A DNA stretch of 64,000 bases from an uncultured Oscillospiraceae bacterium (GCA_904419145.1 CAJFQQ010000007.1:481-64480); one strand, 5' to 3'; counted from the first letter of the stretch, positions 26,967 through 56,413 are shown. Translations and numbers: made by a program. Notes: generated from the sequence alone by a model not told the origin.

Positions 26967-26996
26967 GATGGATGACTCGCTTCAAGGAGTGAATTG

Positions 26997-30268: not shown

Positions 30269-30269
30269 G

Positions 30270-30824: not shown

Positions 30825-30841
30825 AAGCAGGAGGAACAGCT

Positions 30842-35212: not shown

Positions 35213-35230
35213 GGAGGCTTAGGTAGGGCT

Positions 35231-35368: not shown

Positions 35369-35396
35369 AACCACAAATGAAAAAGCTTAGGAGGGA

Positions 35397-35783: not shown

Positions 35784-35824
35784 GGGAACGACAAATTTTA
35801 ATCAGACACAAGGAGTGTAGAAAA

Positions 35825-36280: not shown

Positions 36281-36339
36281 ATACAACCATAGAAAGGCCG
36301 GCTGGATCAGTCGGCCTTTTTTCAGGAGGAGGGAGAACA

Positions 36340-37131: not shown

Positions 37132-37137
37132 GGAGGG

Positions 37138-41325: not shown

Positions 41326-41376
41326 ATCCCCCAAAGCGGCGCGCTGACTCTGCGCCGCTTTGGGGGATATTTTTAT
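41326..41376 (+). terminator. strong intrinsic terminator
   Basis: 17-bp perfect stem ATCCCCCAAAGCGGCGC / GCGCCGCTTTGGGGGAT followed by ATTTTTAT. Confidence 0.85.
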
Positions 41377-41416: not shown

Positions 41417-41445
41417 TTGACAATTATAGCCCTTTTTCCTATAAT
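41417..41445 (+). promoter_or_regulatory. perfect sigma-70 consensus promoter TTGACA-17-TATAAT
   Basis: Hexamers at 41417-41422 and 41440-41445, followed by a roughly 190-nt leader before the first T7SS-unit gene. Confidence 0.65.
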
Positions 41446-41633
41446 TTTTAGTGAAAGATACAAAAGAAACAGGGGGCGGGGCCACCTTGGCGTTGAGCAA
41501 AGGGGAGAAGCCTTGGATGTTGGAACCATTTGTCAGCTTTCAGGCGCCGTTCGTCGCATCTCCCAGCACAGGCAGTTCCTGACGGATATGATGGTGTCAG
41601 CTGAAAGCAAGAAAAACCACTTCGGAGGTTGAC

Positions 41634-42938
41634 ATGGCAAAGATACAGATTGAGCCGGTGAGGGCAAAGAGCGCGTTGAACCTGGAGGATGCGCTGGAAC
41701 AGGCGCTGCGTTCCATGTCCAATGAGGTGGATGGGGTTCGAAGCGGCCTGCGTTATAAAATTTCAGGCCAGGAGCAGATTGCGGCGCGCCTCAAAGACGT
41801 GGTGGAGCAGTTGGCCAAGGAGGCAAACGCCACTGGCGCTATGCGGGACGGGCTGGAGCAGATCATTGCGCGGTATGAGCAGGCCGAGAGCAGCAACCGG
41901 GAGCGCACCGTGGCAGATGGGACCACCATACAGCAGGGCGCAGATGGCAGCAGCGGGGCGGGAACGGGGACGGATATCTGGGATCGCTTCAAGGAGGCAT
42001 TGGAAGTCCTGCTCGATCCCGAAGAGGCCGGCCGTTTGCCCGGGCCCATCAGTGCTGCTGTACCGTGGCTCATACAGCCGTTCTACCAGTTCACCGAAAA
42101 TGACGGGGAAGCGGACAATCCCTGGTTCAAAATAAAGGGAGAACTCGACAACAAGCACGAGGGCGAGGGAGAGCTCTGGGACTATGAAAAAAAGAAAGAT
42201 GTCGAAGATTTTCCCTATCAGAAGCACTACTATAAGGATGTGGAAACCGGCGAGATTATAGAGGTGGATCCCAATGGGAAAGAGGACATGGAAGCCCTTA
42301 AGAAGCACAGCAAGGGCACAATCCCCGTTGATCTGACCGTAGCAGGGATCGGCGTCTCCGGCAGTGCAGCGATTTTTGACAATGATTTTGGCGGGAAATA
42401 CGATTGGGGCGGACATGAAGGGAATGTCTCGGTTGGAAAGATCGAGGGCCATGCGGATGCTTACCTGGGCGCGCTGGCCATAGGCGCTGAGGTCGGCGCC
42501 AGTATCACAGCGTTTTCTGCCAAAGAAAAAGCATACTTGGGGACAGAAGACTTCAACCTTTATGGGGAAGCCAGCGTGACAGCAGGCCGGGCCGAGGCAA
42601 AGGCCGGTGCCAGTGCAGGGCTTTTGGATAAGGAGGGGAATTTTAATCCAAGCGCATATGTCGGCGCCTCGGCAGAGGCGATTGCTGGCGAGATTACCGG
42701 AAAGGCCGGTGTGGATATTGCCGGCGTAGATGTAGGCGTGGAGGGGAGCCTGAACGTTGGCGTAGGCGCCCACGCCAACGTGGGGCTGCATGACGGCAAG
42801 CTCAGTGTGGACATTGGCGCTTCACTGGGGGTCGGCGCCAGCATCAAGCTGGAAGTAGATGTGTCAGGTGCAATTGATGCTATGGCGGATACAGCGGACG
42901 CCATCTGGTCCGGCGTTACAAATTTGTTCAACTGGTAA
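41634..42938 (+). CDS. putative T7SS substrate/effector: N-terminal WXG100-like helical hairpin with YxxxE, C-terminal Gly/Ala-rich repeat domain
   Basis: 434 aa. The first about 90 aa are helical and end in ARYEQAES. The C-terminal 150 aa contain repeated (V/I)GAS and GxxxG-type segments (KAGASAGLL, YVGASAEAIAGEITGKAG, GVGAHANVG, DIGASLGVGASIKLE). It is followed by DUF4176 genes. Confidence 0.55.
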   Translation: MAKIQIEPVRAKSALNLEDALEQALRSMSNEVDGVRSGLRYKISGQEQIAARLKDVVEQLAKEANATGAMRDGLEQIIARYEQAESSNRERTVADGTTIQQGADGSSGAGTGTDIWDRFKEALEVLLDPEEAGRLPGPISAAVPWLIQPFYQFTENDGEADNPWFKIKGELDNKHEGEGELWDYEKKKDVEDFPYQKHYYKDVETGEIIEVDPNGKEDMEALKKHSKGTIPVDLTVAGIGVSGSAAIFDNDFGGKYDWGGHEGNVSVGKIEGHADAYLGALAIGAEVGASITAFSAKEKAYLGTEDFNLYGEASVTAGRAEAKAGASAGLLDKEGNFNPSAYVGASAEAIAGEITGKAGVDIAGVDVGVEGSLNVGVGAHANVGLHDGKLSVDIGASLGVGASIKLEVDVSGAIDAMADTADAIWSGVTNLFNW

Positions 42939-42972
42939 TTACAGAGCGAAATCAATAAGGGGTGTTTGAGCT

Positions 42973-43332
42973 ATGGATAAAGAGCTATTACCGATTGGCA
43001 GCGTGGTGCAGCTGGAAAATTCCACCGCATTGGTGATGGTGGCAGGGTATCTTCCTGTCGCGCCGTCCCGCCCGGATTATATCTGGGATTATTCCGGGTT
43101 TCGTTTCCCGATTGGGTTTACAGACAATGACGCTGTATACTGCTTTGACCACAGGCAGATCCAGGTGGTGTACGCCTATGGATACAAGGATATCGAAGAA
43201 GACATCTTTATGGGCAAGCTGATGGGCGCCCAGGGACGTGTGGCAGATATGGTGAAGTCCGGACAAGCGGGGCCGGCGGCGCACCGGGCGGAGAGAGCGG
43301 CAGCTCCTCAAAAATCTGACAAGGAGGCCTGA
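42973..43332 (+). CDS. DUF4176 family protein
   Basis: LLPIGSVVQLENSTALVMVAGY...WDYSGFRFPIG...FDHRQI matches my memory of the DUF4176 pattern. This family is commonly linked to T7SSb loci. Confidence 0.7.
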   Translation: MDKELLPIGSVVQLENSTALVMVAGYLPVAPSRPDYIWDYSGFRFPIGFTDNDAVYCFDHRQIQVVYAYGYKDIEEDIFMGKLMGAQGRVADMVKSGQAGPAAHRAERAAAPQKSDKEA

Positions 43333-43334
43333 GC

Positions 43335-43625
43335 ATGTATTCCTATGACAAGGTTTTGCCCATCGGATCGGTGGTGCTGTTGAAAAACGCCAACAAGCGG
43401 CTCATGATTATTGGGTATCAGAGAAAAAAAGCTGATGGGGACGACAAAATTTATGACTACTGCGGCTGCCTGTATCCAGAGGGGTATACCAGCCCCAAGG
43501 ACACAGCCATTTTTGACCACGAGCAGATTGAGCGTATCATTTCCATTGGGCTTCAAAATGCAGCGCAGATCGAGTTCTCTGAAAAGCTGAAGGGGATCAT
43601 CGCGCAGAGAGAGGGCAAGCAATGA
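43335..43625 (+). CDS. DUF4176 family protein
   Basis: VLPIGSVVLLKNANKRLMIIGYQ...YDYCGCLYPEG...FDHEQIERI. AAGGAGG SD. Confidence 0.8.
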   Translation: MYSYDKVLPIGSVVLLKNANKRLMIIGYQRKKADGDDKIYDYCGCLYPEGYTSPKDTAIFDHEQIERIISIGLQNAAQIEFSEKLKGIIAQREGKQ

Positions 43626-44140
43626 GCCGCTGGGATGCAGGCAGCAAAGTTTTCCTGCTGTGCGGATGCATCTTTGTAACCGTAGGGGTGATCTTTCTGT
43701 GCGCATGCGCTTTGATGCTGACCCAGATAGATACGCTGGCCCTGGACCGACAGAACGACGCACGGTTCCTCCCGGTGATTTTCGGCGCGCTCGGGGGACT
43801 GATGGCGGCCATCGGGGGCGCACTGCTGGTGTGGCTGCGCCGCAAAAGAAAGAGGACGGAGCGTTTGCTGGAGCGGGGGGAATATGTAATCGCAAAGATT
43901 ACCGGCTTCCCTGTGGACTACCAGGTGACGATCAACGGTCGGCCCACCTATCGGGTGGAGTGCAGCTATCAAGACCCGGTGACGGGGATTCTCCATGTGT
44001 TTGAGAGTAAAAGGCTGCTGATTGACCCGGCCTACTGCGTGACGGCGGAGACCGTGCGCGTCTATGTAAACAGGGAGGCCGGATACCAGGACTACTATGT
44101 AGATGTGGATCCCATCCTGCCTCGTGTGGAGCGGCACTGA
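43622..44140 (+). CDS. DUF3592-like 2-TM membrane protein (candidate immunity protein)
   Basis: 172 aa. ATGA overlap with the upstream gene. Two TM segments followed by a beta-rich domain (GEYVIAKITGFPVDYQVTINGRPTYRVECSYQDP). Confidence 0.6.
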   Translation: MSRWDAGSKVFLLCGCIFVTVGVIFLCACALMLTQIDTLALDRQNDARFLPVIFGALGGLMAAIGGALLVWLRRKRKRTERLLERGEYVIAKITGFPVDYQVTINGRPTYRVECSYQDPVTGILHVFESKRLLIDPAYCVTAETVRVYVNREAGYQDYYVDVDPILPRVERH

Positions 44141-44323
44141 GCGATTCCCGGGCAGTAAAGGCAGATTATAGCGGACGGATGCAGTTCATCCCCATTGAAA
44201 TGACATTCGTCAGGAAAGACAGCCTTCCGGCCCGGCCTGTGTTAAGATGAAAGCACAACAAGGGAATACAAAATACTTGAGATACCAATTCCATTCAAAC
44301 TATCAAACAGGAGGAAGAGAACA

Positions 44324-44620
44324 ATGGCAGAGATCAAGGTAACCCCTCAGCAGCTGAAGGACAAGGCGACAGATCTGGAGAGCTACAACCGGAAATTCCG
44401 GGCCGAAGTAGAAAAAATGGTGGGCTATGAGCAGCAGCTGGCCAGTATGTGGGAAGGCGATGCGCAGAAGGCGTTCCGCAAGGCGTTCAATGATGACAAG
44501 CTCAAGATGGAGCAGTTCGCGCTGAATATTGATAAATATGTCCTGGCCCTGCGGGAAGACGCGCAGCGGTACGAGACGGCGGAAAACACAGCCACCAGCA
44601 TTGCCACTACCAGAAAGTAA
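44324..44620 (+). CDS. WXG100 family protein (Esx-like, W-E-G)
   Basis: 98 aa. MAEIKVTPQQL..., central SMWEGDAQKAF, C-terminal RYETAEN. GGAGGA SD. Confidence 0.85.
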   Translation: MAEIKVTPQQLKDKATDLESYNRKFRAEVEKMVGYEQQLASMWEGDAQKAFRKAFNDDKLKMEQFALNIDKYVLALREDAQRYETAENTATSIATTRK

Positions 44621-44695
44621 GCAGAGACAGGCCCCATTCGAGAAATCAGACCTGCCGCACAGCAGCAGGATACCGTTAAAAAGGAGAAGAATACG

Positions 44696-45010
44696 ATGAC
44701 TGGTAATTTGAGAGTAACACCTGAGAAATTGATCTCCACGGCCACCCAATTTTCCCAGAGCGACAACACAGTAAATACCCTGACCAACCAGATGATGGAT
44801 ATTGTCAATCAGCTGAACTCCACCTGGGCCGGCGAGGCAGCTACCGGCTTCTATACCAAGCTCAAAGGCCTTCAGGGGGATATGCAGAAGCTCCACAAGA
44901 TGATTCAGGAGCACACCACAGATCTGAACGATATGGCGAAGACGTATCAGCAGGCCGAAAAGGAAAACGTCCAGACGGCGAGTGCGCTTAAGACCAACGA
45001 GATTGTCTGA
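44696..45010 (+). CDS. WXG100 family protein (Esx-like, W-A-G)
   Basis: 104 aa. LRVTPEKL..., STWAGEAATGF, TYQQAEKEN, ends ALKTNEIV. Confidence 0.85.
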   Translation: MTGNLRVTPEKLISTATQFSQSDNTVNTLTNQMMDIVNQLNSTWAGEAATGFYTKLKGLQGDMQKLHKMIQEHTTDLNDMAKTYQQAEKENVQTASALKTNEIV

Positions 45011-45042
45011 GACCAACGGCGCCAGTGCTTGGAAAAGCGGCC

Positions 45043-45069
45043 GCCCGAAGCGCTCCCGGCGCTTCGGGC
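45043..45069 (+). other. stable GC hairpin without U-tract downstream of the esx pair
   Basis: GCCCGAAGCGC-TCCCG-GCGCTTCGGGC, an 11-bp perfect stem. Confidence 0.6.
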
Positions 45070-45180
45070 GCATTGGCGCTGTTTGGATACAACCGTCCCT
45101 TTCCGCCGGTCCTGTGTCAAGTTCTGCAGTCCCGGACAGGCTGAAAGGGATGGCTGCATCTGTATTTCAAGGCGGGGGAG

Positions 45181-45762
45181 GTGCGTTCTGCGTTGTTGCA
45201 GTTTCTACAGACCAATTGGTATTTTTGGGTGATCCCCCTGCTTTTGATCGTGGGCATACCCATCATTGCACGGCGGCGAAGGACAAGGCGGGAGTGGGAG
45301 GAGATGTCTCAGCGCAAACGGAGGGATGAGGCACTCAATGAGGCGCTGCGTAACCCGCACCTGGAGCGCGACAACAGCGGGCCTGAGCGGCCAATGGCGA
45401 TCAGCTGGGAGGATCGGGCTGTCAACGAGAAAAAGAAACGGGATAATTCTCCGCTGGTGGAGCTGGTGCTGCTGTCGGAGTATTCCCACAGGAAGTATGT
45501 CTACCGACTGGATCAGCCCATTCGGATTGGAAGCGGGGTGGACAACCAGATGGAACTCCACTGGGAGGGTGTGGCACCCCGGCACTGCGAGATTTTCCTC
45601 AACCAGGAGAAGCCCTGCGTCCGGAGCCTGATGGGCGCAGAGACGTGCCTGATAAGGGGGAAGGCCTCGGCTCCGGTAGGGAGTGGAGGCGTCTATCTAA
45701 ATAATGGGGACTATATCCGCCTGGGGGCGGCTGAGGTTCAGTTCCGCATGCTCAAGGGCTGA
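45181..45762 (+). CDS. single-TM protein with degenerate FHA domain
   Basis: 193 aa. The start is uncertain (GTG 45181 or TTG 45193/45196). TM segment WYFWVIPLLLIVGIPII. The C-terminal FHA-like fold (PIRIGSG...PRHCEI...YLNNGDYIRLG) lacks the canonical GR / SxxH / NG residues. Confidence 0.7.
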   Translation: MRSALLQFLQTNWYFWVIPLLLIVGIPIIARRRRTRREWEEMSQRKRRDEALNEALRNPHLERDNSGPERPMAISWEDRAVNEKKKRDNSPLVELVLLSEYSHRKYVYRLDQPIRIGSGVDNQMELHWEGVAPRHCEIFLNQEKPCVRSLMGAETCLIRGKASAPVGSGGVYLNNGDYIRLGAAEVQFRMLKG

Positions 45763-45839
45763 CCGCCGGATGGCTGACCGGGGCGGTGCCGGGGATACAC
45801 CGCAGAGAAAAGGGAACATCGGGGGGAGGATGGAACCGC

Positions 45840-48800
45840 ATGAGCATGGTACTTTCCATCTATAGTCAGAAGGGGTTTCGGGAGGTCACGCTGCCTGAGC
45901 GTGGGCAGCAGGCCCTGGAGGTACTGATTGAAAGGGAGCTCTTTGCATTGGATCAGGATCTCACGCTATCCTTGGCACAGGAGGATGGCCTGTGGGTGCT
46001 GCGTACCCAGGATGGCCTGCTGTCTATGTCCGGAGGGGAGCGGCCCGTTTCTGTCGCCATAACGGACGGCGCTCACTTCCAGGTGGAGACGCCGCAGGGC
46101 GGTCGGATCACCGTAATCAGTTTTGAACAGACCAATCCCTTCACGGTGTACCGCAAATATGCCCTGGCAGGCCTGCAGCAGATTAAAATTGGCCGGGGGA
46201 GCGGGAACGATATCTGTTATCAAAATGATTTCGTCTCCCATGAGCACTGTACCATTACCCTGCAGGGCGGCAGCGCCATACTGCACGATACTTCCAGCAA
46301 CGGCACATTCATTAACTTCCAGCGTGTGTCCGGCAGTACCGTGCTGCACTATGGCGACAGCATCCGAATTATGCGCCTTAATCTTATTTTCCTGGGCAAC
46401 ATGATTGCTATTGATGACTGTGACAACTTGACCATGAGGCTCCCGCAGCTTGGAAGCGAAGAAATTGCGCACCTCGCCGCGAATGCCCATGGGACAGGTT
46501 TGCGCCGGATCCTGTTCCACCGTTCACCGCGCAATCTCCGAAAGCTGCGTACGGAGGCCTTTGAAATCGAGGCGCCGCCTAGCCCTGCGGATCAGAAGGA
46601 GGCATCTCTGGCGATGGCCATCGGTCCGGCGCTGACGATGGCGATCCCCATGTTGTTGGGGAGCGGACTGTCTGTTCTGACCAGCCAGAGCGGTGGCGGA
46701 TTCATGTATGTGGGCCTGATTACAGCTGGTGCCTCGGCAATCATTGGCGCGGTGTGGGCGTTTGTCAATGTGCGCAGCGCCAGCAAGGCCCGTAAGCAGG
46801 AGGAGAATCGCCGCTTCGAGCGCTACAGCGAGTATCTCATCCAGATGCGCGACAGCATAGAAGCGGATTACAATAAAAATGCGGAGTCCCTGCGAGAACG
46901 GTATCTCAGTGCGGGGGAGTGCTGTGCCTTGAATGAGCATTCCCCTCTTCTGTGGAACCGGAATGACTCCTATGATGATTTCCTCAGTGTTCGGATCGGA
47001 ATAGGCGATGTGCCTTTTCAGGCACCTATCAATATCCCCAGGGAGCGGTTTACTCTGGTCAGCGACTCTCTGGCAGACAAACCCAAGGTGATCCGGGACA
47101 ACTTCAGCACACTGAAGGACGTCCCAGTGACAGTGGACCTTTTGACGCGCCGGCTGGTCGGACTTGCGGGCGGAGGCAGCAGGAAGAACGCTATCGCTGT
47201 TGCAAAGGCGATGATTGCTCAGATTGCCGTGGCCAACAGCTACACAGATGTCAAGATTGCTGTAGTTTATGATGGGACCAGCGATATCGACCGCGAGGCA
47301 TGGAAGTTTGCCCTGTGGCTGCCCCACGTCTGGTCCAGCGACAAGAAGATCCGGTATATTGCAACCACCCCATCCGAGAGGGCGGATGTGTTCCATGCGC
47401 TGGCACAGGTCCTGCGAAACCGCAGCGAGGAGGACGAGAAGGAGGGGCGGAACATCAAGCCGCGCTTTGTCCTGTTTGTCTCCAATCCGGCTCTGTTGGA
47501 CGGAGAGGGTGTGTCCCGCTATGTGTTTGGCCGGGAAATGGATCTTGGGCTCTCCACAATCCTGCTGGCATCCCGGCCGGAGGAGCTGCCCAATGAGTGT
47601 GAATATATTGTAGAGGACAGCGGCAATTATCAGGGGATCTATGATACCAGAGAGGGCCGCGATGCTGGAACATTGGTGAAGTATGACCGGGTTTCTGATG
47701 AGCTGCTCTGGACACTTTCCAAAAATTTGAGCCGGGTTGAGGTAGTGGAGGCGGAGCAGGATGGAGAGATTCCCAGCACGCTGACCTTTTTTGACATGTT
47801 CGGTGTAGAGCGCCCACAGGAGCTGGAAGCTGCGGAGCGCTGGAAAAAAGCGGATACCATTACCAGCATGAAGGCGCTGGTAGGATTTCGCAGCGGGAAT
47901 ACCCCGTGCTATCTGGACATCCATGAGCGTTACCATGGTCCCCACGGTTTGGTGGCAGGCACCACGGGCTCCGGAAAATCGGAGACCCTGCAGACCTATA
48001 TTCTTTCCCTGGCGGTGAATTTCAGCCCTGAGGATGTAGGTTTCTTTATCATTGACTACAAGGGCGGCGGCATGGCCAATTTGTTTGACGGTTTGCCCCA
48101 CATGATCGGCTCCATCTCCAACCTCTCTGGAAACCAGGTCAAACGGGCTATGGTATCCATTCAGGCAGAGAACCGACGCCGTCAGCGGATCTTCGCGGAC
48201 TATGGGGTCAACAATATCAACGGTTATACAGCCCTCTACAAAAACGGAGACACTTCCGAGCCGATCCCCCACCTGTTTATTATCATTGATGAGTTTGCTG
48301 AGCTCAAGCGGGAGGAATCGGAGTTCATGAAGGAGCTCATCAGCGTGGCTCAGGTAGGGCGCAGTCTGGGGGTTCATCTGATCCTCTCCACCCAGCGCCC
48401 CTCGGGCACAGTAGACGAGAATATCTGGGCCAACAGCAAGTTCCGCCTGTGTCTGCGGGTGCAGGACCGCCAGGACTCCATGGATATGCTCCACCGCCCG
48501 GAGGCGGCCTATCTGACTCAGGCTGGCCGCTGCTATCTCCAGGTGGGCAACGATGAAATCTTTGAGCTGTTCCAGAGCGGCTGGTCCGGCGCCACCTATG
48601 ACGAGGAGCTGGGCGGAGGAAGCCTGCTGATTGCCCAGATGCTCAGTGCGACCGGCAAAGTGGATCTGGCGGGGAACCACGCGAAGATCAAGCGGAAGGA
48701 GGAGATCAAACGGCGGTGGGTGACGCAGCTGGTGAATATCCTCCAGCAGACAGAGGAGGAAACAGGGATCTCTGCTCTGGCCTCAGGATTCCACTTCGAA

Positions 48801-50804
48801 GAGACCTGGCCCTTCCGGGAGCGCTTTTATCAGCATCTGCAGGCGCTGCAGCCGGATCTTGAGGATAACCAGTTCAATACAGCCCGGATCGCTGATTTCT
48901 GCGCGCTCTATCGGGAGCTGGCGGGAACAGCGGACAGCCGGCAGCTGGCAGAACAGCTGGTTTACAGGGCGGCACGGGAAGGAAAGCGCCTGCCGGAGCC
49001 CAAATCGAGGACGCAGCTGGAGGTTACAGTTGAATATTTGAAGGCCGAGGCGGAGAAGGCGGGAGTTGGCGCAATGCGGAAGCTTTGGCTGCCGGTATTG
49101 CCCAGTGTACTTTATCTGGACGCACTGGATGTGTTTGTACGCGCTGCCTTTGATGGGCAGAAATGGCAGGAAAAACCCCGCCGCTTCCAGCTCAATGCCA
49201 TCATTGGGATGGTGGACGACCCGGAGAATCAGGCCCAGATGCCGGTGTCCATGGATTTTGCCAATGGTGGCCACCACATGGTGATCGGTACGGTCTCCAC
49301 GGGCAAGTCCACCCTGCTGCAGACGGTCGTCTATTCCCTGGCCGCCTGCTACCCGCCGGATCTGTTGAATATCTATTGCCTGGATTTCAGCGCAAAGATG
49401 CTGTCCGTGTTCAATGGCCTCAAGCATGTTGGGGGATATCTGGACGAGTCGGATCTGGAAACCGACCATGTCGACAAATTCTTCACCATGATAGCCCACA
49501 TTCTGGATGAGCGGAAGGCCCGCTTTGCCGGCACCGGGTTTGAGGATGCCGTGAACCACGATGGGTGGGATACACCGGCGATCCTTATTGTCATCGACAA
49601 CTACGGCAGTTTCCACGAAAAAACCGGGGAAACCTATGAGGCGATTATGACCCGAATCGCTAAGGAGGGCATCGGATACGGCGTGTTCCTCCTGGTATCA
49701 GCAGGCGGCATCGGTATGCAGGAGCTGCCTAGCCGGCTGGCGGAAAACTTCCGGACAGGAGTGGCCCTGGAACTGCCGGATCCCTTCGCCTATGCGGATG
49801 TGCTGCGTGTTGTCCGGCCTCCGGTTCTGCCGGAGAGCAAGGTCAAGGGCCGCGGCCTGATCTACTATGGAGACCGGGTTCTGGAATTCCAGACAGCTTT
49901 GGCCGCCCATGCAGAGGGAGGACCGGAGCGAAACGACCTGCTGAAGGCCGCTGTGGCAGAAATGAACGCTGCCTATTCCGGGCCCCGCGCCCGGGCAATC
50001 CCCAGCATTCCTGCCAATCCCCATCGCACCGACTTTACGGCGCTGCCTGAGTATCAGCAAGCAATTGCGGATCCTGCACGGATGCCGGTAGGCTATGACT
50101 ATGAGTATGCGGACCCGTTTTCCTTTGATTTGACGGCCAATTACGTCTATTTGATTACCGGAACAAAGCAGAGTGGAAAATCGGTGCTGATGGAAAATCT
50201 CATGCTGAACGCTATGGATAAGGGTGACGAGGTTGTGATCCTGGAAGTGGGTGACAGCCGGTTTGCTCAGATTGCGCAGGAACATCAGCTGCTCCGCTGT
50301 ACAGATGGCCAGAGCGTATACGATTTCCTGGCGCGTATCCACGGGGAACTGCTCCAGCGGGCTGTTATCAAAAAAGCGTGTATGGATGCGCGGCAGTCCG
50401 ATCTGGAGATGTTTACAGCGGCGCTGGAGAACCGGCGGATCAATATTTTTATTGGTAATCTGCTGGCGCTGATAGAGGAACTGTACAGCTCCGAGTCCCC
50501 CGCATTCAATGCCCAGGGGCTGTTTGAGACCCTCTGTGAACGCGGCAAGGGATATAATATTTTCCTCTATGCCGAGGTAAGTGACCGGGATGAAGCAGAA
50601 TTGATGGGGTATACCTGCTTCGAGAGCATGCGCGGTTACCGTTCAGGAATCCGCTTCGGTGGCAGATTCAGCGAACAAAAGCTGTTCTCTTTTGAAAATG
50701 TAAATTACCTGGAGCAGGATCGGTCTATGAAAGCCGGGATCGGCATGATCCCAAGCGAGAATCGGGATGACCGGCAGGTCAAGGTGGTTGTACCCATGAG
50801 CTGA
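45840..50804 (+). CDS. essC: T7SS FtsK/SpoIIIE-family ATPase EssC/YukB-like
   Basis: 1654 aa from ATG 45840 (GGAGGA SD). The N-terminal FHA domain carries GR, SHEH and SSNGT. Two TM segments. Three P-loops: GTTGSGKSE, GTVSTGKST, GTKQSGKSV. Confidence 0.9.
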   Translation: MSMVLSIYSQKGFREVTLPERGQQALEVLIERELFALDQDLTLSLAQEDGLWVLRTQDGLLSMSGGERPVSVAITDGAHFQVETPQGGRITVISFEQTNPFTVYRKYALAGLQQIKIGRGSGNDICYQNDFVSHEHCTITLQGGSAILHDTSSNGTFINFQRVSGSTVLHYGDSIRIMRLNLIFLGNMIAIDDCDNLTMRLPQLGSEEIAHLAANAHGTGLRRILFHRSPRNLRKLRTEAFEIEAPPSPADQKEASLAMAIGPALTMAIPMLLGSGLSVLTSQSGGGFMYVGLITAGASAIIGAVWAFVNVRSASKARKQEENRRFERYSEYLIQMRDSIEADYNKNAESLRERYLSAGECCALNEHSPLLWNRNDSYDDFLSVRIGIGDVPFQAPINIPRERFTLVSDSLADKPKVIRDNFSTLKDVPVTVDLLTRRLVGLAGGGSRKNAIAVAKAMIAQIAVANSYTDVKIAVVYDGTSDIDREAWKFALWLPHVWSSDKKIRYIATTPSERADVFHALAQVLRNRSEEDEKEGRNIKPRFVLFVSNPALLDGEGVSRYVFGREMDLGLSTILLASRPEELPNECEYIVEDSGNYQGIYDTREGRDAGTLVKYDRVSDELLWTLSKNLSRVEVVEAEQDGEIPSTLTFFDMFGVERPQELEAAERWKKADTITSMKALVGFRSGNTPCYLDIHERYHGPHGLVAGTTGSGKSETLQTYILSLAVNFSPEDVGFFIIDYKGGGMANLFDGLPHMIGSISNLSGNQVKRAMVSIQAENRRRQRIFADYGVNNINGYTALYKNGDTSEPIPHLFIIIDEFAELKREESEFMKELISVAQVGRSLGVHLILSTQRPSGTVDENIWANSKFRLCLRVQDRQDSMDMLHRPEAAYLTQAGRCYLQVGNDEIFELFQSGWSGATYDEELGGGSLLIAQMLSATGKVDLAGNHAKIKRKEEIKRRWVTQLVNILQQTEEETGISALASGFHFEETWPFRERFYQHLQALQPDLEDNQFNTARIADFCALYRELAGTADSRQLAEQLVYRAAREGKRLPEPKSRTQLEVTVEYLKAEAEKAGVGAMRKLWLPVLPSVLYLDALDVFVRAAFDGQKWQEKPRRFQLNAIIGMVDDPENQAQMPVSMDFANGGHHMVIGTVSTGKSTLLQTVVYSLAACYPPDLLNIYCLDFSAKMLSVFNGLKHVGGYLDESDLETDHVDKFFTMIAHILDERKARFAGTGFEDAVNHDGWDTPAILIVIDNYGSFHEKTGETYEAIMTRIAKEGIGYGVFLLVSAGGIGMQELPSRLAENFRTGVALELPDPFAYADVLRVVRPPVLPESKVKGRGLIYYGDRVLEFQTALAAHAEGGPERNDLLKAAVAEMNAAYSGPRARAIPSIPANPHRTDFTALPEYQQAIADPARMPVGYDYEYADPFSFDLTANYVYLITGTKQSGKSVLMENLMLNAMDKGDEVVILEVGDSRFAQIAQEHQLLRCTDGQSVYDFLARIHGELLQRAVIKKACMDARQSDLEMFTAALENRRINIFIGNLLALIEELYSSESPAFNAQGLFETLCERGKGYNIFLYAEVSDRDEAELMGYTCFESMRGYRSGIRFGGRFSEQKLFSFENVNYLEQDRSMKAGIGMIPSENRDDRQVKVVVPMS

Positions 50805-50820
50805 TGGAAAGGCGGAGGCA

Positions 50821-51537
50821 ATGATTGCGATTCTTGTCTGTGACAGAGATGAGCGGGAGCGGGAAACGATTGGCACAGACTGCCGCAGGCGCATTGCGGT
50901 GGGCTGCGACGAGGCGCTGGAACTCACCGGCGCATCGGATGACGCGGAGCTCCTTTTGGTTGCGGAAGACGAGCGCTTGGTTCATCTGTTATACTATGAT
51001 TACCAGGCTGGCCAGCAAATGGAGGGACTGCGCCTGTTCCGCAGACGCTGCAGCGGCGCAATGGTTATGCTGATTACCGATGCTTCGGTTTCCCCACTGG
51101 AATATTTGCGCCCCGGAACAGCCCCTGATGCGCTGTTGCTGCGGCCGCTGAACGAGGAAATGTTAGATGCGGTCAATGGGGAGTTCATGGACAGTTTCTT
51201 CCAGCGGTTTCATGGCGGGAAAGCCGACGACAGCTTTGTGGTGGACACCCGGGAGGAAAAGGTGTTTCTTCCCTATTCCCAGATCTACTACTTTGAGGCC
51301 CGGGATAAAAAGCTGTTTGTCCGCACAAAAAATGAAGAGTACGCCTTCTATGATACCATAGAGGGATTGGAGCGTCGGCTCCCAAGCGCTTTCCGCCGCT
51401 GTCACCGGAGCTATATTGTCAATACAGAAAAAATCCAGCGGATCCTTTCGGCGGAAAATTTTATCGACCTGGGGAACCAGATCGGAGCCCCGATATCCAG
51501 AAGCTATAAAGGGGCATTCAAGGGAGTGGGGACATGA
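50821..51537 (+). CDS. receiver-like domain + LytTR DNA-binding domain regulator (orphan)
   Basis: 238 aa. The C-terminal LPYSQIYYFEARDKKLFVRTKNEEYAFYDTIEGLERRLP..FRRCHRSYIVN is a LytTR domain. The N-terminus has a CheY-like pattern (ILVCDRDE, YYDY, LITDAS, LLLRPL). Confidence 0.8.
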   Translation: MIAILVCDRDERERETIGTDCRRRIAVGCDEALELTGASDDAELLLVAEDERLVHLLYYDYQAGQQMEGLRLFRRRCSGAMVMLITDASVSPLEYLRPGTAPDALLLRPLNEEMLDAVNGEFMDSFFQRFHGGKADDSFVVDTREEKVFLPYSQIYYFEARDKKLFVRTKNEEYAFYDTIEGLERRLPSAFRRCHRSYIVNTEKIQRILSAENFIDLGNQIGAPISRSYKGAFKGVGT

Positions 51538-52196
51538 GAGCGGGCGAGCTGATGTATTTTACACCGGCGGAGCTTATTGTGATGATGGAGCTGGCCGACG
51601 GCGGGGCGTACTCCATGATCCGGTGGGATGCGCAGCCGGATGACATCGGCCTGGTGCAGGCACTGGCCAGTCTGTTTCAGCGGGGATTGATCCTCCGGGA
51701 AGGGGATAGATTGGCGCTGAGCGCGAAGGGGCGACCCTTTTCCGGCATGAAACAGGCCGGCACCGCACTGCTGCTGTCCGCCATGCCGTCAGGGCGAGTG
51801 GTTGTGTGCTATGTAGGGAAAGACGCGATTTGGCTGGTGGAGCCGGTGGATGAGGTTCTCACCCAGCGGTTTCGGCTGCAGCAGATAGAACGGGCAGCGA
51901 TCCGCGATTGGCTGACAGAGGCGGAATTTCTGGAATTCCCTCTCCTACACGACGCGGATGCCGCCGAACTAAGCCGACTGTTCGAGGATGAGCTCAGTGA
52001 GCCATCCGGTAGTGTGCACCTCCGCTTGGAGCGGTATGTCAACGGTGGCCCTCTGCTGTGCACATATGAGGTGACGGAAGGACGGGGCGGACGTCTGGTG
52101 ACCCGTCGGGACGACCAGGGCTGCGCCGCGGAAATTTACACGGATGAGGCGCTGTCGCGGATGCTGACGGAATGTTTTGGGGAGGAGCCGATATGA
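51534..52196 (+). CDS. hypothetical protein (T7SS-locus specific, no family recognised)
   Basis: 220 aa. ATGA-coupled to both neighbours. Soluble and acidic. Confidence 0.5.
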   Translation: MRAGELMYFTPAELIVMMELADGGAYSMIRWDAQPDDIGLVQALASLFQRGLILREGDRLALSAKGRPFSGMKQAGTALLLSAMPSGRVVVCYVGKDAIWLVEPVDEVLTQRFRLQQIERAAIRDWLTEAEFLEFPLLHDADAAELSRLFEDELSEPSGSVHLRLERYVNGGPLLCTYEVTEGRGGRLVTRRDDQGCAAEIYTDEALSRMLTECFGEEPI

Positions 52197-52441
52197 TTAT
52201 TGTCAATATTCATGCCCCCGCACTGGAAACGGTATATAATTTCTCTCTGGAGGAGACGGCAAAAATCGGCGATCTAATGGAGGAAATCGTGGAATTGATT
52301 GCCCAAAAGGAACATGTCCCCTTTGGCGGGGGCCTGGAGGAGATGGTACTGTGCTCAGTGGAGAACGGGGAGCAGTTTGATAAAAGCCGCTGCCTGGCTG
52401 ACTACGGTATTTCTGGTGGTGCGGAACTGATTTTGGTTTAG
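52193..52441 (+). CDS. yukD: YukD/EsaB-like ubiquitin-fold T7SS protein
   Basis: 82 aa from ATG 52193 (GGGGAGGAG SD). The C-terminus QFDKSRCLADYGISGGAELILV parallels the B. subtilis YukD end (...CKLSDCGITNGDRLEIL). Confidence 0.75.
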   Translation: MIIVNIHAPALETVYNFSLEETAKIGDLMEEIVELIAQKEHVPFGGGLEEMVLCSVENGEQFDKSRCLADYGISGGAELILV

Positions 52442-52566
52442 CCCTGGTGTGGGGCGCAGATATCTGTGACAGGTGTCATTCATCCTATTAACGGTGCGGT
52501 TCGTCGCAAAGGCGGATCCCATCTGGCACACCATGTTACCATAAGAATGTCAAAGGAGAATGTGCC

Positions 52567-52932
52567 ATGCAGATCATAGTCAATACAGGAAAAGCGAATA
52601 TTGCCAGTGCGGATCTGCTGGCCCTCTCCCGCACGATCCGCAATTTGCGGGAGGAGGTTGAGGATGTGCGCCGTCAGCTTCGGCAGCATACGCAGCTGGA
52701 TAGCTGCCGGGCAGAGCTGCGCAAGCAGGAGGAGGCACTGTCACTGCTCACAGCAAGGCTGGTCAATTTGTCTTCGGCTTTGCGTCAGATATCCGATGCC
52801 TACAGCCGGGCAGAGCGTCAAAATGTGGATCGGCTGGAGGAGGAAGGTGCTCATCACCAAGCTGCCGGTGTGACCATATATGAGGCGGGCAGCTATTATC
52901 GGGACAAGATCCATCAAATTTTATATCAATAG
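52567..52932 (+). CDS. helical-hairpin protein, WXG100-superfamily-like without WXG
   Basis: 121 aa with predicted coiled helices. It contains AYSRAERQN (a YxxxE motif). AAAGGAG SD. Confidence 0.5.
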   Translation: MQIIVNTGKANIASADLLALSRTIRNLREEVEDVRRQLRQHTQLDSCRAELRKQEEALSLLTARLVNLSSALRQISDAYSRAERQNVDRLEEEGAHHQAAGVTIYEAGSYYRDKIHQILYQ

Positions 52933-52948
52933 AGGGAGGACAATTCAG

Positions 52949-53254
52949 ATGGCCGGCAGAATCATAGAGGTGAATACCAGCACCTTGCGTTCGGATGTTT
53001 CCGCTATTGAGGAGGAGATCAGCGGCATTAACAGGGGGGCGGATCGGCTGGCACAGGCTCTGCGGGAACTGGAGAGTATGTGGGATGGGAATGCCAAGCA
53101 GGCATTTTCCGCGGCGGTCAATGATGATATTCGCCGTCTGCGGGAGCTGGCCAAAGCCCTTGCGCAGTTTACCGAGAAAACAAGCGAAGCCCGCCGGGAG
53201 TATGATACATGTGAAACTGCGGTTTCCCAGATTGTTTCATCAATTCGGGTATAG
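52949..53254 (+). CDS. WXG100 family protein (W-D-G), paralogue of 44324-44620
   Basis: 101 aa from ATG 52949. SMWDGNAKQAF..NDD is shared with SMWEGDAQKAF..NDD. C-terminal REYDTCE. Confidence 0.8.
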   Translation: MAGRIIEVNTSTLRSDVSAIEEEISGINRGADRLAQALRELESMWDGNAKQAFSAAVNDDIRRLRELAKALAQFTEKTSEARREYDTCETAVSQIVSSIRV

Positions 53255-53265
53255 GAGGAGAAGTT

Positions 53266-53583
53266 ATGGCAGATATGGTATTGCGTGTAACGCCTGAAAC
53301 GCTGGAACGGAAGGCAAGTGAATTCACTGATATAGTCCGTGACATCCAGCAGCGCTTTGACAAGATTGCAACCATCTCTTCCAAGACAAAGGGATACTGG
53401 CAGGGGGAAGCAGGTGACCAGGACCGTACCGGATATGCCTCCTATCAAGACGATATCGCCTTTATCCTCCGCCGCCTGCAGGAGCATCCGACGGATCTGC
53501 TGTCTATGGCGGGAATCTATCGGGAGGCGGAGCGCGACGTAGCCAGCACCAATGCGGCGTTGAAGACCGATCAGATTGTATAG
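53266..53583 (+). CDS. WXG100 family protein (W-Q-G), paralogue of 44696-45010
   Basis: 105 aa. LRVTPETL, GYWQGEAGD, IYREAERD, ends ALKTDQIV. Confidence 0.85.
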   Translation: MADMVLRVTPETLERKASEFTDIVRDIQQRFDKIATISSKTKGYWQGEAGDQDRTGYASYQDDIAFILRRLQEHPTDLLSMAGIYREAERDVASTNAALKTDQIV

Positions 53584-53599
53584 GGAGGGACGTGGTGTC

Positions 53600-53911
53600 A
53601 TGGCAAGTTTATCGGAAATCTATTTTAACTATAACCAGGCCATGGAGCAGGCCAAACAGCTGGATGAGATTGCCGTACGGCTGACCAATGCAGCCAACAA
53701 GGACATGGAGGATCTCTTAAACGATGTAAACAGCGCATGGAAAAGCGACAGCGCCCCACAGTACATTCGAAAGGGCCGAAAAGTCGGAGACGACATGCGG
53801 ACCACGTCGGGGAACCTCAAAAACATTGCCGCAGCGATCCGCACCATTGCCAAGCGGATTCTGGAGGCGGAGCTTGAGGCGTGGAGGATTGCAAATGAGC
53901 GCAGGAGCTGA
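53600..53911 (+). CDS. WXG100-like small helical protein (degenerate motif W-K-S)
   Basis: 103 aa from ATG 53600 (GGGAGGGA SD). SAWKSDSAPQY lies at the hairpin turn. No YxxxE. Confidence 0.55.
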   Translation: MASLSEIYFNYNQAMEQAKQLDEIAVRLTNAANKDMEDLLNDVNSAWKSDSAPQYIRKGRKVGDDMRTTSGNLKNIAAAIRTIAKRILEAELEAWRIANERRS

Positions 53912-55379
53912 GAGATGGATAAAAAAATGGATATCGCTTGCTGCTGCGGTGTGTTTGCTGTTCGCAGCGGCGCTTGATGTCCAAGCGGGGGAGACTGTCC
54001 CGGTGATGGAACAGTATGTGACCGCTGATGCGGTGCACTTGTATCTCAAATATGCCGGAGATGTGCAGGGCGTCGCTGCACAAATCGGCACAGAGGCGGC
54101 GGAACAGATTGAGATCGCAGATAGGGAGTCGATACCTATTGTTACCTGGCTGCTATTGGACAATTCCATCTCCATCAGCGATGCTGACCGGACCAAAGCG
54201 AAAGAACTGCTGACGAATCTGGTGGCCGGCAGGCTGGACAACGAGAGCTTCAACCTGTGTACATATGATGAGCATTTGAATGTTATTCTGCAGGACAGCC
54301 AGAGCTATGCCGACTTGAAGAGCCAGATTGACGCCATTGTCCATAATGATCAGGAGAGCTATCTGACAGATGTGCTGGATGAGCTGCTGGAGGCGGAGAG
54401 CGCTCGGACGGAGCCGGCGTACGTACGGGTTGTCGTAATCTGTGACGGTGTAGACAATAATCCGGAAGGCCTGACACGGGAGGAGCTGAATGACCGCCTC
54501 GCCAGGCAGAAGATCCCGGTTTATACGCTGGGCTGCGAAACTGGCGAAAATGAGACGCTGCTCAAAGAGCTGTATTCCCTTTCCCGTCAGACCGGCGCCT
54601 TAAGCTGGTCCCTCAGCGGCCTGACGGAGACCTTGGACGTGGTCAAGGCGATGAGCGGAGAGGAAGTCCCCATCTGTGCCACGGTTTCCATCCCAGAGGA
54701 CCTGAGGGATGGAAGCGTAAAGGGCATTCAGTTGACCTTCAGTGATGGCAGCATTGCAGAGACCCAGGCCGCAATGCCCTTTGGCCAGGTAGAAGAAGGG
54801 CAGGCCCATGTTCCAGTCCCGGCGCCGACAACCGAACCGGAAGCCGAGGCGGGATCATTGCTGGTGCAGTATTTGCCCTATATGATCGCTGGTGGAGCGG
54901 TGTTGCTGCTGGCGGGAATTGTTGTTGTCGTGATCCTTTTAGCCCGCAAGAAAAGGGAGCGCCAGCAGATCAAGCCGGTGTCAGACGACCTGCTTTCTTT
55001 TGCAGGGACCACAGATCTTCTCCCTGAACAGTATGGGAATGCTGGTGCCGGCGGTACACTGCCGCTGGTTGGAGATGAGAGGTGTACCGTGCTCTGCATC
55101 TCCGATATATCGCATCCGGAAAGGCGCTTTGAGGTGCCGCTGCGCGGCAGGGTTTCCATCGGCAGGGCGCCGTCGAATCAGATTGTCCTGGACTACGAGC
55201 GATCCATATCAGGGACACACTGCGAGATTTTTGCTGAGGGCAGCAACTGGAAGATCCGTGATCTCCATTCCAGCAATGGGACCTATCTCAACGGCATCCG
55301 CCTCACAGATGCGGCAGAACTTACCAGCGGAAGTGTTCTCAAGTTGGGGCGGCTGGAGCTGCTGGTTGAAATACGATGA
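53895..55379 (+). CDS. signal peptide - vWA - TM - FHA transmembrane protein
   Basis: 494 aa from ATG 53895. Signal-like WISLAAAVCLLFAAALDVQAGE. vWA MIDAS LLLDNSISIS. TM segment MIAGGAVLLLAGIVVVVILLA. The C-terminal FHA is canonical (IGRAPSN, SGTHCEI, SSNGTYLNG). Confidence 0.8.
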   Translation: MSAGAERWIKKWISLAAAVCLLFAAALDVQAGETVPVMEQYVTADAVHLYLKYAGDVQGVAAQIGTEAAEQIEIADRESIPIVTWLLLDNSISISDADRTKAKELLTNLVAGRLDNESFNLCTYDEHLNVILQDSQSYADLKSQIDAIVHNDQESYLTDVLDELLEAESARTEPAYVRVVVICDGVDNNPEGLTREELNDRLARQKIPVYTLGCETGENETLLKELYSLSRQTGALSWSLSGLTETLDVVKAMSGEEVPICATVSIPEDLRDGSVKGIQLTFSDGSIAETQAAMPFGQVEEGQAHVPVPAPTTEPEAEAGSLLVQYLPYMIAGGAVLLLAGIVVVVILLARKKRERQQIKPVSDDLLSFAGTTDLLPEQYGNAGAGGTLPLVGDERCTVLCISDISHPERRFEVPLRGRVSIGRAPSNQIVLDYERSISGTHCEIFAEGSNWKIRDLHSSNGTYLNGIRLTDAAELTSGSVLKLGRLELLVEIR

Positions 55380-56101
55380 AGATGAGCTATGCCGGCTGTT
55401 CACAGCGGGGACTGGTGCGCAGCACCAATGAGGACGTCTATTTGATGCGTTCAAGCGGCCATGCTGCGCTGTTCCTTGTTGCGGACGGCATTGGCGGAAG
55501 GGCCCACGGCGGAGTGGTCAGTGCCATGCTCCGGGATGGATATGACGCGTGGTTTCGGCGGCATATCCTGCTTCCGGGTGAAAATTTGGATTTCCAGGCC
55601 GCAGTTGACGGGCTCCGGGGCGTTCTGCTAGAGCAAAACAAAGAGGTTATCCGGCGCTTTGGGCCGGGGACGGCGGGATCTACCATAGTGCTTCTCTTTA
55701 TCCTGGGAAACCGTTACCTGTACTTTTGGTCCGGCGACAGCCGGATTTACCGGGGACACCGGCTGTCTGTCAAACAGATTACCATAGATGACGTCTATGA
55801 AAATTGGACGGACCGCCCCGCTAAATGGGAGCCTTCAAAGGTTGGAAAGCTGGTAGGGGCGGTGGGAATTTGCCCGGTGCCCAAGTTTACACTGGGAACC
55901 GGGGCACTGTGCCGTGGGGATCGCTTTTTCCTCTGTAGCGACGGGGTCTATCGGTATCTATCAGATCGGGATTTGCGGATGCGGCTGCGGTTCAGTCCGA
56001 AGGATCCGGGCCATTTGATTGCCGATCTTGCCGGAAGGGTGGAAGGCCACGGGGCTGGGGACAACTATTCTATGATTTTTGCACGGGTTGACAGCGTATG
56101 A
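55376..56101 (+). CDS. PP2C-family Ser/Thr protein phosphatase
   Basis: 241 aa. ATGA overlap with the vWA-FHA gene. RSTNEDV, VADGIGG, CSDGV and GDNYS motifs. Confidence 0.85.
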   Translation: MKMSYAGCSQRGLVRSTNEDVYLMRSSGHAALFLVADGIGGRAHGGVVSAMLRDGYDAWFRRHILLPGENLDFQAAVDGLRGVLLEQNKEVIRRFGPGTAGSTIVLLFILGNRYLYFWSGDSRIYRGHRLSVKQITIDDVYENWTDRPAKWEPSKVGKLVGAVGICPVPKFTLGTGALCRGDRFFLCSDGVYRYLSDRDLRMRLRFSPKDPGHLIADLAGRVEGHGAGDNYSMIFARVDSV

Positions 56102-56413
56102 GGACAGAGTGAGGACGGTCTCCAAAGAGTTTCATCGGATACAGAAAACTCTCCGGAAAAGCCGCGCGGAATATCCTCCCGAGAAGCCGGAAGGGCGTTT
56201 GTGTGCCTTTTTATCCCCCTTTAACCTCCTTATATGCCGCAGAGATTGCCCTGTATGGCACCCTGCGGCATATTCGCGTTCCCGAAGCGATTGCGCGGGA
56301 CGGCTGGCAGGGGACAAAAGGCAGAAACCAGCTTTTGCATTTCAGAGCGTTTTCTGGTACAGTGGGATTAGGGTCACACAAGGGAAACGGAATAAGGAGG
56401 GCGAGTATAGTAT

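Follow-up and report, generated by a model that had tools for sequence, protein, structure and literature searches.

Type VII secretion systems (T7SSs) of Firmicutes mediate contact-dependent killing and studies of them have, to our knowledge, been confined almost entirely to bacilli, staphylococci and streptococci. Here we report on a 23-kb island at positions 33107-56101 of a 64,000-nucleotide stretch of DNA from an uncultured Oscillospiraceae bacterium (GCA_904419145.1 CAJFQQ010000007.1:481-64480; the whole stretch is referred to as the window, and positions are counted from its first letter), and our data support the identification of this island as a type VII secretion locus in which EssA, EssB and EsaA are not recognisable.

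Systems without these three proteins have been described. Garrett, Higginson and Palmer (Microlife 2024) defined the subtypes T7SSc-j, which are without EssA, EssB and EsaA, by EssC phylogeny together with gene neighbourhood (PMC11217815). Variously, these subtypes comprise membrane kinases (TsxD, with TPR in TsjD), PPM phosphatases (TsxF), FHA proteins (TsxJ), a vWA protein (TscE), transmembrane (TM) proteins matching Zn ribbons (TsxK), EspG-like proteins (TshG and TsiG) and a LytR-like regulator (TsiN); TseK, for example, is a TM protein whose BLAST and FoldSeek matches are Zn-ribbon proteins (PMC11217815). TsiN is unique to T7SSi, a subtype reported from Vallitalea only, where the WXG100 genes are variably placed with no TsxA assignable and the FHA motifs of the ATPase are poorly conserved (GR 20%, SxxH 30% and NG 90%; PMC11217815). 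The authors were less confident about the core components of T7SSf-j, and, citing Agrobacterium and the parallel with type VI secretion, they already proposed that these systems are controlled through phosphorylation of threonine (PMC11217815).

We consider it probable that the island in the window is a T7SS of the lineage that has a core of FHA-bearing EssC, LytTR, EspG-like and YukD-like proteins, that T7SSi is its closest described relative, and that it represents a distinct, conserved version of the gut and rumen. Its central gene encodes a 1654-amino-acid (aa) EssC/TsxC ATPase (45840-50804; + strand, as are all features of the island), a length on which the public gene calls agree. The protein scores 1010 bits against TIGR03928, the NCBIfam model of Firmicute EssC (cut-off 778), and Pfam detects an FHA domain at residues 115-177 (E = 1.1e-15) and FtsK_SpoIIIE in three stretches. 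Together with two TM segments (residues 255-273 and 291-309) and three P-loops (GTTGSGKS, GTVSTGKS and GTKQSGKS) this is the EssC architecture that a first-pass annotation, made from the sequence of the window alone, had assigned to the protein.

The same annotation had called the locus T7SSb-like, a label that did not survive comparison with the described subtypes. We compared the window EssC with ten subtype ATPases, using their N-terminal ≈630-650 residues as machine-read from Fig. S2 of PMC11217815. TsiC gave the highest score (210 bits, 29% identity), followed by TseC (176), TsfC (137), TsjC (136), TsdC (134), TscC (118), TsgC (104), Staphylococcus aureus EssC (80 bits, 21% identity) and TshC (79), while members of its own family scored at least 400 bits in the N-terminal comparison. 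In the reverse direction the best matches of TsiC are members of the window EssC family (158-262 bits), ahead of TsjC (147 bits), and TsiC is therefore the nearest of the ten in both search directions, yet its machine-read N-terminal sequence falls outside the family. As judged from these N-terminal pairwise scores the window EssC family and TsiC are sister groups; S. aureus EssC ranks with the weakest matches, and the window protein does not group with T7SSb EssC.

A close homologue of the window EssC (40-72% identity) is present in at least 78 species-representative genomes. Homologues at 40-83% identity are numerous in the public assembly collection, in which contigs with the identical EssC sequence occur in 39 blocks, the three places shown having the same called gene set. 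Scanning species-representative genomes with an EssC alignment gave 80 loci, and the open reading frames (ORFs) called in all of these were searched with iterated profiles of the window proteins; the counts given here refer to the 53 loci that extend at least 6 kb upstream and at least 8 kb downstream of EssC. The hosts are mostly Lachnospiraceae and Oscillospiraceae of gut and rumen, among them the cultured Blautia luti, Oribacterium sp. KHPX15 and Clostridium sp. chh4-2, and in the complete genome of Lacrimispora sp. BS-2 (CP157940.1) the EssC gene (product 45% identical) has the same neighbours. One Clostridia-type locus (L019, CAYUKT010000034.1) is found on a contig of a metagenome-assembled genome labelled 'uncultured Bacteroides sp.', which is probably a binning error.

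YukD is encoded in all 53 loci, the LytTR gene is directly 3' of EssC in 47, an EspG-like gene is present in 46, and the order EssC-LytTR-EspG-like-YukD is kept in 46. Each of five WXG families occurs in 50-51 loci (WXG1 51, WXG2 51 and WXG5 50), and a 121-aa protein, encoded invariably after YukD, in 45. An ectodomain-TM-FHA protein of ≈500 aa was found in 44 of the 53, in most of them inside the operon after the WXG array, and a gene for a small TM-FHA protein lies immediately 5' of EssC in 38. The remaining families are less frequent: a 434-aa family in 42 loci, DUF4176 in 37, a kinase gene in 36 and PP2C, within 10-kb flanks, in 27. The census of this partner set around essC homologues that the first-pass annotation had proposed thus shows that the set recurs in dozens of Clostridia genomes. 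Separately, EssC is followed directly by YukD, without LytTR and EspG-like genes, in a minority of loci (L015, L036, L037, L039, L041, L048, L053, L057, L058, L078 and L080); since the two genes are missing jointly they seem to be gained or lost together.

Several components are shared with T7SSi, specifically an FHA-bearing EssC-type ATPase, a LytTR protein (TsiN), an EspG-like protein (TsiG) and a YukD-like protein (TsiB), and both systems are without EssA, EssB and EsaA. It is unlikely, in our estimate, that the locus is simply T7SSi as described, with the FHA, PP2C and kinase genes of Vallitalea not called core as too few genomes were available. The common TsiC-, TsiN-, TsiG- and TsiB-like genes, the position of TsiC as nearest described ATPase in both directions and the lower confidence of the authors in the core of T7SSf-j (PMC11217815) are in line with such an identity. 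However, TsiM, which has a C-terminal TM and a MinD/ParA-like domain, has no counterpart: no gene with a KGGxGK[ST] P-loop is present in the 64-kb window, and no TsiM-like family recurs among the unassigned ORFs of 81 loci. Compared to T7SSi the window locus adds two conserved membrane FHA proteins, a PP2C and a TPR-kinase; its six small WXG100-type genes are in fixed order, whereas those of T7SSi are variably placed; its EssC is ≈130 residues longer and belongs to a separate cluster, held together by at least 400 bits as against 210 for TsiC; and in the FHA domain of the EssC family SxxH and NG are well conserved, with GR present in the window copy though not in most members. The hosts also differ, being gut and rumen Lachnospiraceae and Oscillospiraceae, not Vallitalea, from which alone T7SSi was described, and the close RefSeq homologues that we checked (two in RefSeq by then and one later record) are not in the accession lists of PMC11217815.

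With these comparisons the claim of a previously undescribed system can stand only in part. It is weakened because Garrett, Higginson and Palmer had defined T7SSc-j with such components (PMC11217815), i.e. the kind has been known since then, and a match to a described subtype, named in the first-pass annotation as grounds for refutation, is half present, the core EssC(FHA)-LytTR-EspG-like-YukD being that of T7SSi. What is retained is the lack of TsiM, the additional conserved parts, the separate EssC cluster and the different taxa. Our literature search found no described T7SS of Lachnospiraceae or Oscillospiraceae, and no later paper that treats T7SSc-j experimentally or describes the gene arrangement seen in the window.

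Searching for the canonical partners, we found no Pfam match to EssB/YukC, EsaA or EssA in any locus ORF between 33107 and 57322, nor to EccB, EccD, EccE or mycosin in any locus ORF, and NCBIfam gave no match to YukC/T7_EssB, EsaA, EssA, EccB/D/E or mycosin for the ten locus proteins that were run, in agreement with the first-pass annotation. Of the 139 unassigned ORFs in the flanks of related EssC genes, no more than six share any one Pfam family, and the missing components are not among the families listed. That the locus is an ordinary T7SSb, whose EssB, EsaA and EssA have diverged beyond detection or have their genes at another place in the genome, appears highly improbable to us. It would agree with the match above cut-off to the NCBIfam Firmicute EssC model and with the fact that the genome is visible for 64 kb only. 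On the other hand, few of the subtype ATPases match the N-terminal part of the window EssC as weakly as S. aureus EssC does; no YukC, EsaA or EssA family appears in the locus ORFs or in the 139 flanking ORFs; and T7SS variants without EssB, EsaA and EssA are documented (PMC11217815). Moreover, the gene just 5' of essC in 38 of the 53 loci encodes the TM-FHA protein and not EssB. In the S. aureus operon essB is the gene just upstream of essC.

The three genes that follow EssC encode the rest of the predicted core. The first encodes a LytTR DNA-binding regulator of 238 aa (50821-51537; LytTR E = 4e-22, residues 148-234). It had been annotated as a receiver-LytTR protein; the LytTR part is clear, whereas Pfam detected no receiver (Response_reg) at E ≤ 0.01, and the N-terminal half of the protein looks, by its sequence, like a degenerate receiver. 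The second gene (51534-52196) encodes a 220-aa protein that the first-pass annotation had left as unknown, and for which neither Pfam nor NCBIfam gave a match, nor did a profile of 54 sequences run against the sequences of the PDB. Homologues numbered 10 and 13 in word-index searches and 106 in an exhaustive profile search. An AlphaFold2 (AF2) model computed from a 13-sequence alignment has a predicted local distance difference test score (pLDDT) of 89.1 and a predicted template modelling score (pTM) of 0.86, and its top 14 Foldseek matches in the PDB are all EspG3 or EspG1, the mycobacterial ESX chaperones (best match E = 4.4e-6, probability 1.0, TM-score ≈0.5). On the strength of this predicted structure the 220-aa protein is an EspG-like chaperone, resembling TsiG/TshG. 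Finally, the third gene (52193-52441) encodes a YukD/EsaB-like ubiquitin-fold protein of 82 aa, a length supported by the public call; its PF08817 score is just above the cut-off (29.2 versus 27 bits), as expected from the earlier assignment.

Two further membrane proteins carry FHA domains. The smaller, of 193 aa (45181-45762), is encoded directly upstream of EssC and has an N-terminal TM segment (residues 12-30) followed by RRRRTRR, a charged linker and an FHA domain (E = 1e-5). The TM and FHA domain were both annotated before, but the latter is degenerate, GR, SxxH and NG being absent from the window copy as well as from the family consensus. The larger, of 494 aa (53895-55379), was also foreseen: a signal/TM segment, an extracellular vWA domain (E = 2.1e-8) with a DxSxS metal ion-dependent adhesion site motif, a second TM segment and a cytoplasmic FHA domain (E = 1.4e-18), the hydrophobic segments being residues 9-27 and 322-340. 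Its positional homologues have a canonical FHA domain (GR, SxxH and NG) in 41 of 41 cases, while the ectodomain is vWA in 22 and a trypsin-like peptidase in 18 of the 41 (e.g. L004:18983-20530 and L017:18983-20659), and therefore a sensor-like domain has been exchanged on a TM-FHA frame that stays constant. With respect to EssC, the FHA domain of the window copy carries GR, SxxH and NG, the canonical phosphothreonine-binding residues; among 78 family members the Arg of GR is kept in 13, the Ser in 68, the His in 75 and NG in 77.

The island also encodes a kinase and a phosphatase. The membrane Ser/Thr kinase (33107-35212) has an N-terminal Hanks kinase domain (Pkinase E = 2.5e-30), a single TM segment (residues 318-336) and a C-terminal TPR region matched by many TPR families. 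Across 60 homologues its G-loop, Lys, HxDIKPxN, DFG and PE motifs are kept, with DFN for DFG in the window copy. The PP2C/PPM phosphatase of 241 aa (55376-56101; PP2C_2 E = 1.6e-8), a previously annotated gene, has metal-binding motifs that are conserved in 32 homologues. The catalytic motifs of both enzymes thus look intact, and the signalling parts appear functional as far as their sequences tell.

We consider it quite improbable that kinase, PP2C, FHA and vWA genes constitute an independent Ser/Thr signalling module beside a minimal T7SS of EssC, YukD and WXG100 proteins. Kinase and PP2C genes do shift position between loci and are missing from some, and kinase/PP2C/vWA gene triads are known in unrelated contexts (PMC7159879). 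Against such a module stand the TM-FHA gene that abuts essC in 38 of the 53 loci, the ectodomain-TM-FHA gene within the operon 3' of the WXG array in most loci, the FHA domain of EssC itself and the presence of the same component classes in T7SSc, e, f and j (PMC11217815). We also considered the vWA/FHA/PP2C/kinase genes as 'ternary systems' in the sense of Kaur et al. 2020 and dropped this assignment; those are vWA-MoxR-VMAP systems (PMC7159879). As was proposed in the first-pass annotation, the locus is therefore better viewed as a divergent T7SS that has membrane partners of another kind and phospho-signalling of its own, with its FHA proteins and the kinase/phosphatase pair in conserved positions.

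The small WXG100-type proteins had been counted as five. Four of them score above the PF06013 cut-off (genes starting at 44324, 44696, 52949 and 53266): protein 1 (98 aa, W-E-G, 44324-44620, E = 4.1e-13, WxG and YxxxE conserved), protein 2 (104 aa, W-A-G, 44696-45010, E = 5.4e-16, YxxxE conserved), protein 3 (101 aa, W-D-G, 52949-53254, E = 1.9e-8, MWxG and YxxCE conserved) and protein 4 (105 aa, W-Q-G, 53266-53583, E = 2.2e-7, YWxGeA and YxxxE conserved). The fifth (103 aa, 53600-53911) is a degenerate WXG100-like protein with a weak match below the cut-off (E = 7.4e-4, 20 bits), where the window copy has W-K-S for the W.G of the family consensus. A sixth small helical protein, of 121 aa (52567-52932), had been overlooked; it matches the WXG100 model TIGR03930 weakly (E = 0.0017), has a conserved YxxxE and is encoded by the first gene of a conserved array that in most loci reads 121-aa protein, WXG3, WXG4, WXG5, WXG1 and WXG2. 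In the window, and in the loci closest to it (L005-L008, L010, L012 and L084), the WXG1-WXG2 pair lies 5' of TM-FHA/EssC; in most Lachnospiraceae loci it comes after WXG5. Duplications of cassettes occur as well, i.e. of WXG1-WXG2-effector-DUF4176 (L029), of WXG3-5 (L022 and L066) and, as a second EspG-like gene, in L081.

Of the six small proteins, five have a conserved YxxxE, a motif needed for type VII substrate recognition (summarised in PMC12482557), and so does the 434-aa family in its N-terminal region. Proteins 2 and 4 (44696-45010 and 53266-53583) share EH(T/P)xDLxxMAxxYxxAE and have near-equal C-terminal tails, ALKTNEIV and ALKTDQIV; they look like paralogues in sequence, and the tail could be an EssC-binding signal.

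The downstream part of the island begins with a candidate secreted effector of 434 aa (41634-42938) that has an N-terminal helical region with YxxxE and a Gly/Ala-rich C-terminal region. The window protein has no Pfam match, and a single-sequence AF2 model was unusable (pLDDT 38). In its family Y81 and E85 are nearly invariant, the C-terminal domains of homologues are Mbeg1-like (5), CHAP (2) or glycine zipper (1), and members mostly precede a DUF4176 gene. In the window this gene is followed by two DUF4176 genes, both annotated earlier, encoding a candidate effector chaperone of 119 aa (42973-43332; PF13780 E = 1.3e-22) and a second protein of 96 aa (43335-43625; E = 1.4e-27). In streptococci, LXG toxins are stabilised by DUF4176 proteins (PMC12482557). 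The polymorphic C-termini and the DUF4176 neighbour are consistent with the 434-aa protein being a polymorphic toxin with its chaperone, a sequence pattern that fits. The next gene (43622-44140) encodes a 172-aa protein with two TM segments and no significant Pfam or NCBIfam family match; in L007 and L008, the closest relatives, it again comes after the effector and DUF4176 genes, and from its position alone we infer a candidate immunity protein.

In terms of organisation, the island comprises 23 genes in two units. The downstream unit (41634-56101) starts with the genes for the 434-aa protein, the two DUF4176 proteins, the 172-aa two-TM protein, two WXG100 proteins, TM-FHA and EssC, and continues after EssC with LytTR, the 220-aa protein, YukD-like, the 121-aa protein, two WXG100 proteins plus the degenerate third, vWA-TM-FHA and PP2C. 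A predicted sigma-70-type promoter (41417-41445) precedes it, in which TTGACA-17-TATAAT matches at 12 of 12 positions and which is the sole perfect site in a 16.4-kb scan. The leader between promoter and first start codon (≈190 nucleotides, 41446-41633) matched no Rfam family. The first-pass annotation had this promoter and every gene and domain that it listed at the right coordinates and on the + strand; its extent of the locus, 41417-56101, covers the main unit, whereas the system starts upstream at 33107 with kinase, Zn-ribbon and vWA/TPR genes.

Following the kinase, this upstream unit (33107-41267) encodes a 128-aa accessory protein with four hydrophobic, presumably TM, segments (35397-35783) without Pfam or NCBIfam match, which is poorly conserved with a homologue only in L055, at the same position; a cytoplasmic coiled-coil protein with a double Zn ribbon (35825-36280; Zn_Ribbon_1 E = 3e-17, DZR E = 5e-13; 151 aa also in the public call); a 263-aa TM protein (36340-37131; same length in the public call) with two hydrophobic segments at the N-terminus and a C-terminal Zn ribbon (weak DZR and Zn_Ribbon_1); a 930-aa TM-TPR-vWA protein (37144-39936; VWA E = 1.6e-22 at residues 494-647, weak TPR, two N-terminal TM); and a 444-aa TM-TPR protein with an RCC1-like beta-propeller (39933-41267; WD40_RLD/RCC1 and TPR_19, TM residues 10-28). 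An intrinsic terminator (41326-41368; 18-bp stem with 12 GC pairs, then a T run) ends the unit and separates it from the downstream unit. In L055 the upstream unit is intact and directly beside TM-FHA/EssC, the TM-TPR-vWA gene being immediately 5' of them, and we therefore conclude that the kinase unit belongs to the same T7SS.

To the left the island is flanked by a molybdenum-cofactor riboswitch (26758-26892, + strand; Rfam RF01055, 78 bits) and, downstream of it, an operon for biosynthesis of the cofactor (26994-31729; MoeA, MoaA-like radical SAM, MobB and MoaB/MoaE) that is unrelated to the T7SS. To the right are a metallo-beta-lactamase (MBL)-fold gene (from 56414) and spoIID. A 112-aa ORF with a TTG start (56079-56417) overlaps the end of the PP2C gene; it probably is not a gene, because it has no family match and is uncalled in public assemblies, and ≈310 bp then separate PP2C from the MBL-fold gene at 56414.

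We suggest the following model for how the system might work. EssC and the YukD-like protein would form the membrane channel and motor, and the small TM-FHA protein together with the bitopic vWA-TM-FHA protein would replace EssB, EsaA and EssA. In the T7SSb of Bacillus subtilis YukD connects YukB with YukC, a pseudokinase (PMC12637312), and the TM-FHA protein encoded beside EssC is the obvious candidate for the place of YukC. The membrane Ser/Thr kinase, with its TPR domain outside the cell, would phosphorylate threonine on a component of the machine; canonical FHA domains, i.e. those of the vWA-TM-FHA protein and of some EssC copies, would bind the phosphothreonine and promote assembly or firing; and PP2C would reverse the phosphorylation and reset the system, in a cycle that by analogy resembles the threonine-phosphorylation control of type VI secretion. 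The LytTR protein, itself encoded in the operon, may control transcription. The six small WXG100-type proteins would be exported as pairs and co-secretion partners, some of them chaperoned in pairs by the EspG-like protein, while the 434-aa putative polymorphic toxin would leave via its N-terminal helical domain, stabilised by the two DUF4176 proteins and neutralised by the adjacent two-TM protein.

A bolder formulation, which we put forward tentatively and hold to be somewhat less probable than its converse, is that the locus represents an eleventh T7SS subtype, the main one of gut Lachnospiraceae and Oscillospiraceae, in which the two FHA proteins and the kinase/PP2C pair constitute a phosphorylation-gated scaffold that replaces EssB, EsaA and EssA, the ectodomain of one of the FHA proteins (vWA or trypsin-like) is an extracellular sensor, and the EspG-like protein is the chaperone of the six WXG100-type proteins.

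Some observations weigh against the reading of the island as a distinct, phospho-controlled relative of T7SSi. By sequence, the FHA domain of the TM-FHA protein upstream of EssC is degenerate, and phosphothreonine binding by EssC itself may not be general, because so few family members keep the Arg of GR. Neither the kinase nor PP2C is present in every locus, for which the 10-kb flank limit is part of the explanation. EssB, EsaA or EssA could be encoded elsewhere, as the absence seen here applies to the 64-kb window and, with this much of the genome visible, does not extend to the whole of it. The comparison with TsiC is one of machine-read N-terminal ≈630 residues only. Lastly, secretion, phospho-control and toxin activity are all things we infer, here as for T7SSc-j.

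The distinct T7SSi-related version, as we favour it, implies a different and well-conserved T7SS in many of the Clostridia that are abundant in gut and rumen, and it extends the 2024 subtype survey, in which the nearest subtype comes from Vallitalea only. With the conserved kinase, phosphatase and FHA genes there is a concrete and testable model of how a Gram-positive secretion machine could be controlled post-translationally, and the effector/DUF4176 cassettes suggest that the gut microbiota harbours a reservoir of toxins yet to be characterised. After 2024 such systems as a kind are no surprise to specialists; it is their prevalence in major gut taxa and the defined list of components that make phospho-regulation testable.

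Turning to the more distant systems, the predicted EspG fold of the 220-aa protein is shared with mycobacterial ESX (T7SSa). However, the protein is 10-16% identical to ESX EspG and ≈50 residues shorter, and the window locus has no PE/PPE substrates, EccB, EccD, EccE or MycP. With the threonine-phosphorylation control of type VI secretion it has in common a membrane Hanks-type kinase, a PP2C and FHA proteins encoded with the secretion machine; the machine is unrelated, and the likeness would be functional only. T7SSb has in common with the window locus an EssC that combines an N-terminal FHA domain with two TM segments and an FtsK-type NTPase, as well as a YukD/EsaB-like protein, WXG100 proteins and DUF4176 chaperones beside toxin genes, but EssB/YukC, EsaA/YueB and EssA/YueC are lacking among the locus ORFs, and the N-terminal half of the window EssC is only ≈21% identical to S. 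aureus EssC.

Closer are T7SSe and T7SSj, in which a membrane Ser/Thr kinase (with TPR in TsjD), the PPM phosphatase TsxF, a separate FHA protein and the TM/Zn-ribbon protein TsxK are also found; specifically, the 263-aa TM/Zn-ribbon protein resembles TseK/TsjK, the kinase TsxD/TsjD and the PP2C/PPM phosphatase TsxF. In eight related loci (L074:497-5569, L043, L047, L060, L070, L071, L072 and L077) a giant protein (1674-2119 aa) is encoded 5' of TM-FHA/EssC; its signal peptide, its long body rich in repeats and its TM segment at the C-terminus give it a layout that resembles that of TsxI (TsdI, TseI and TsjI), whereas the window is without a giant immunoglobulin-like protein. T7SSe and T7SSj differ from the window locus in being without LytTR and EspG-like components, in ATPases (TsjC and TseC) that are more distant than TsiC, and in FHA proteins of different architecture, DUF6382, the N-terminal domain of TsxJ, having no match in the two window FHA proteins or in 41 homologues. 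Taken together, the locus is related to T7SSi, widespread in gut Clostridia and uncharacterised, and belongs among systems that as a kind were already described in 2024.

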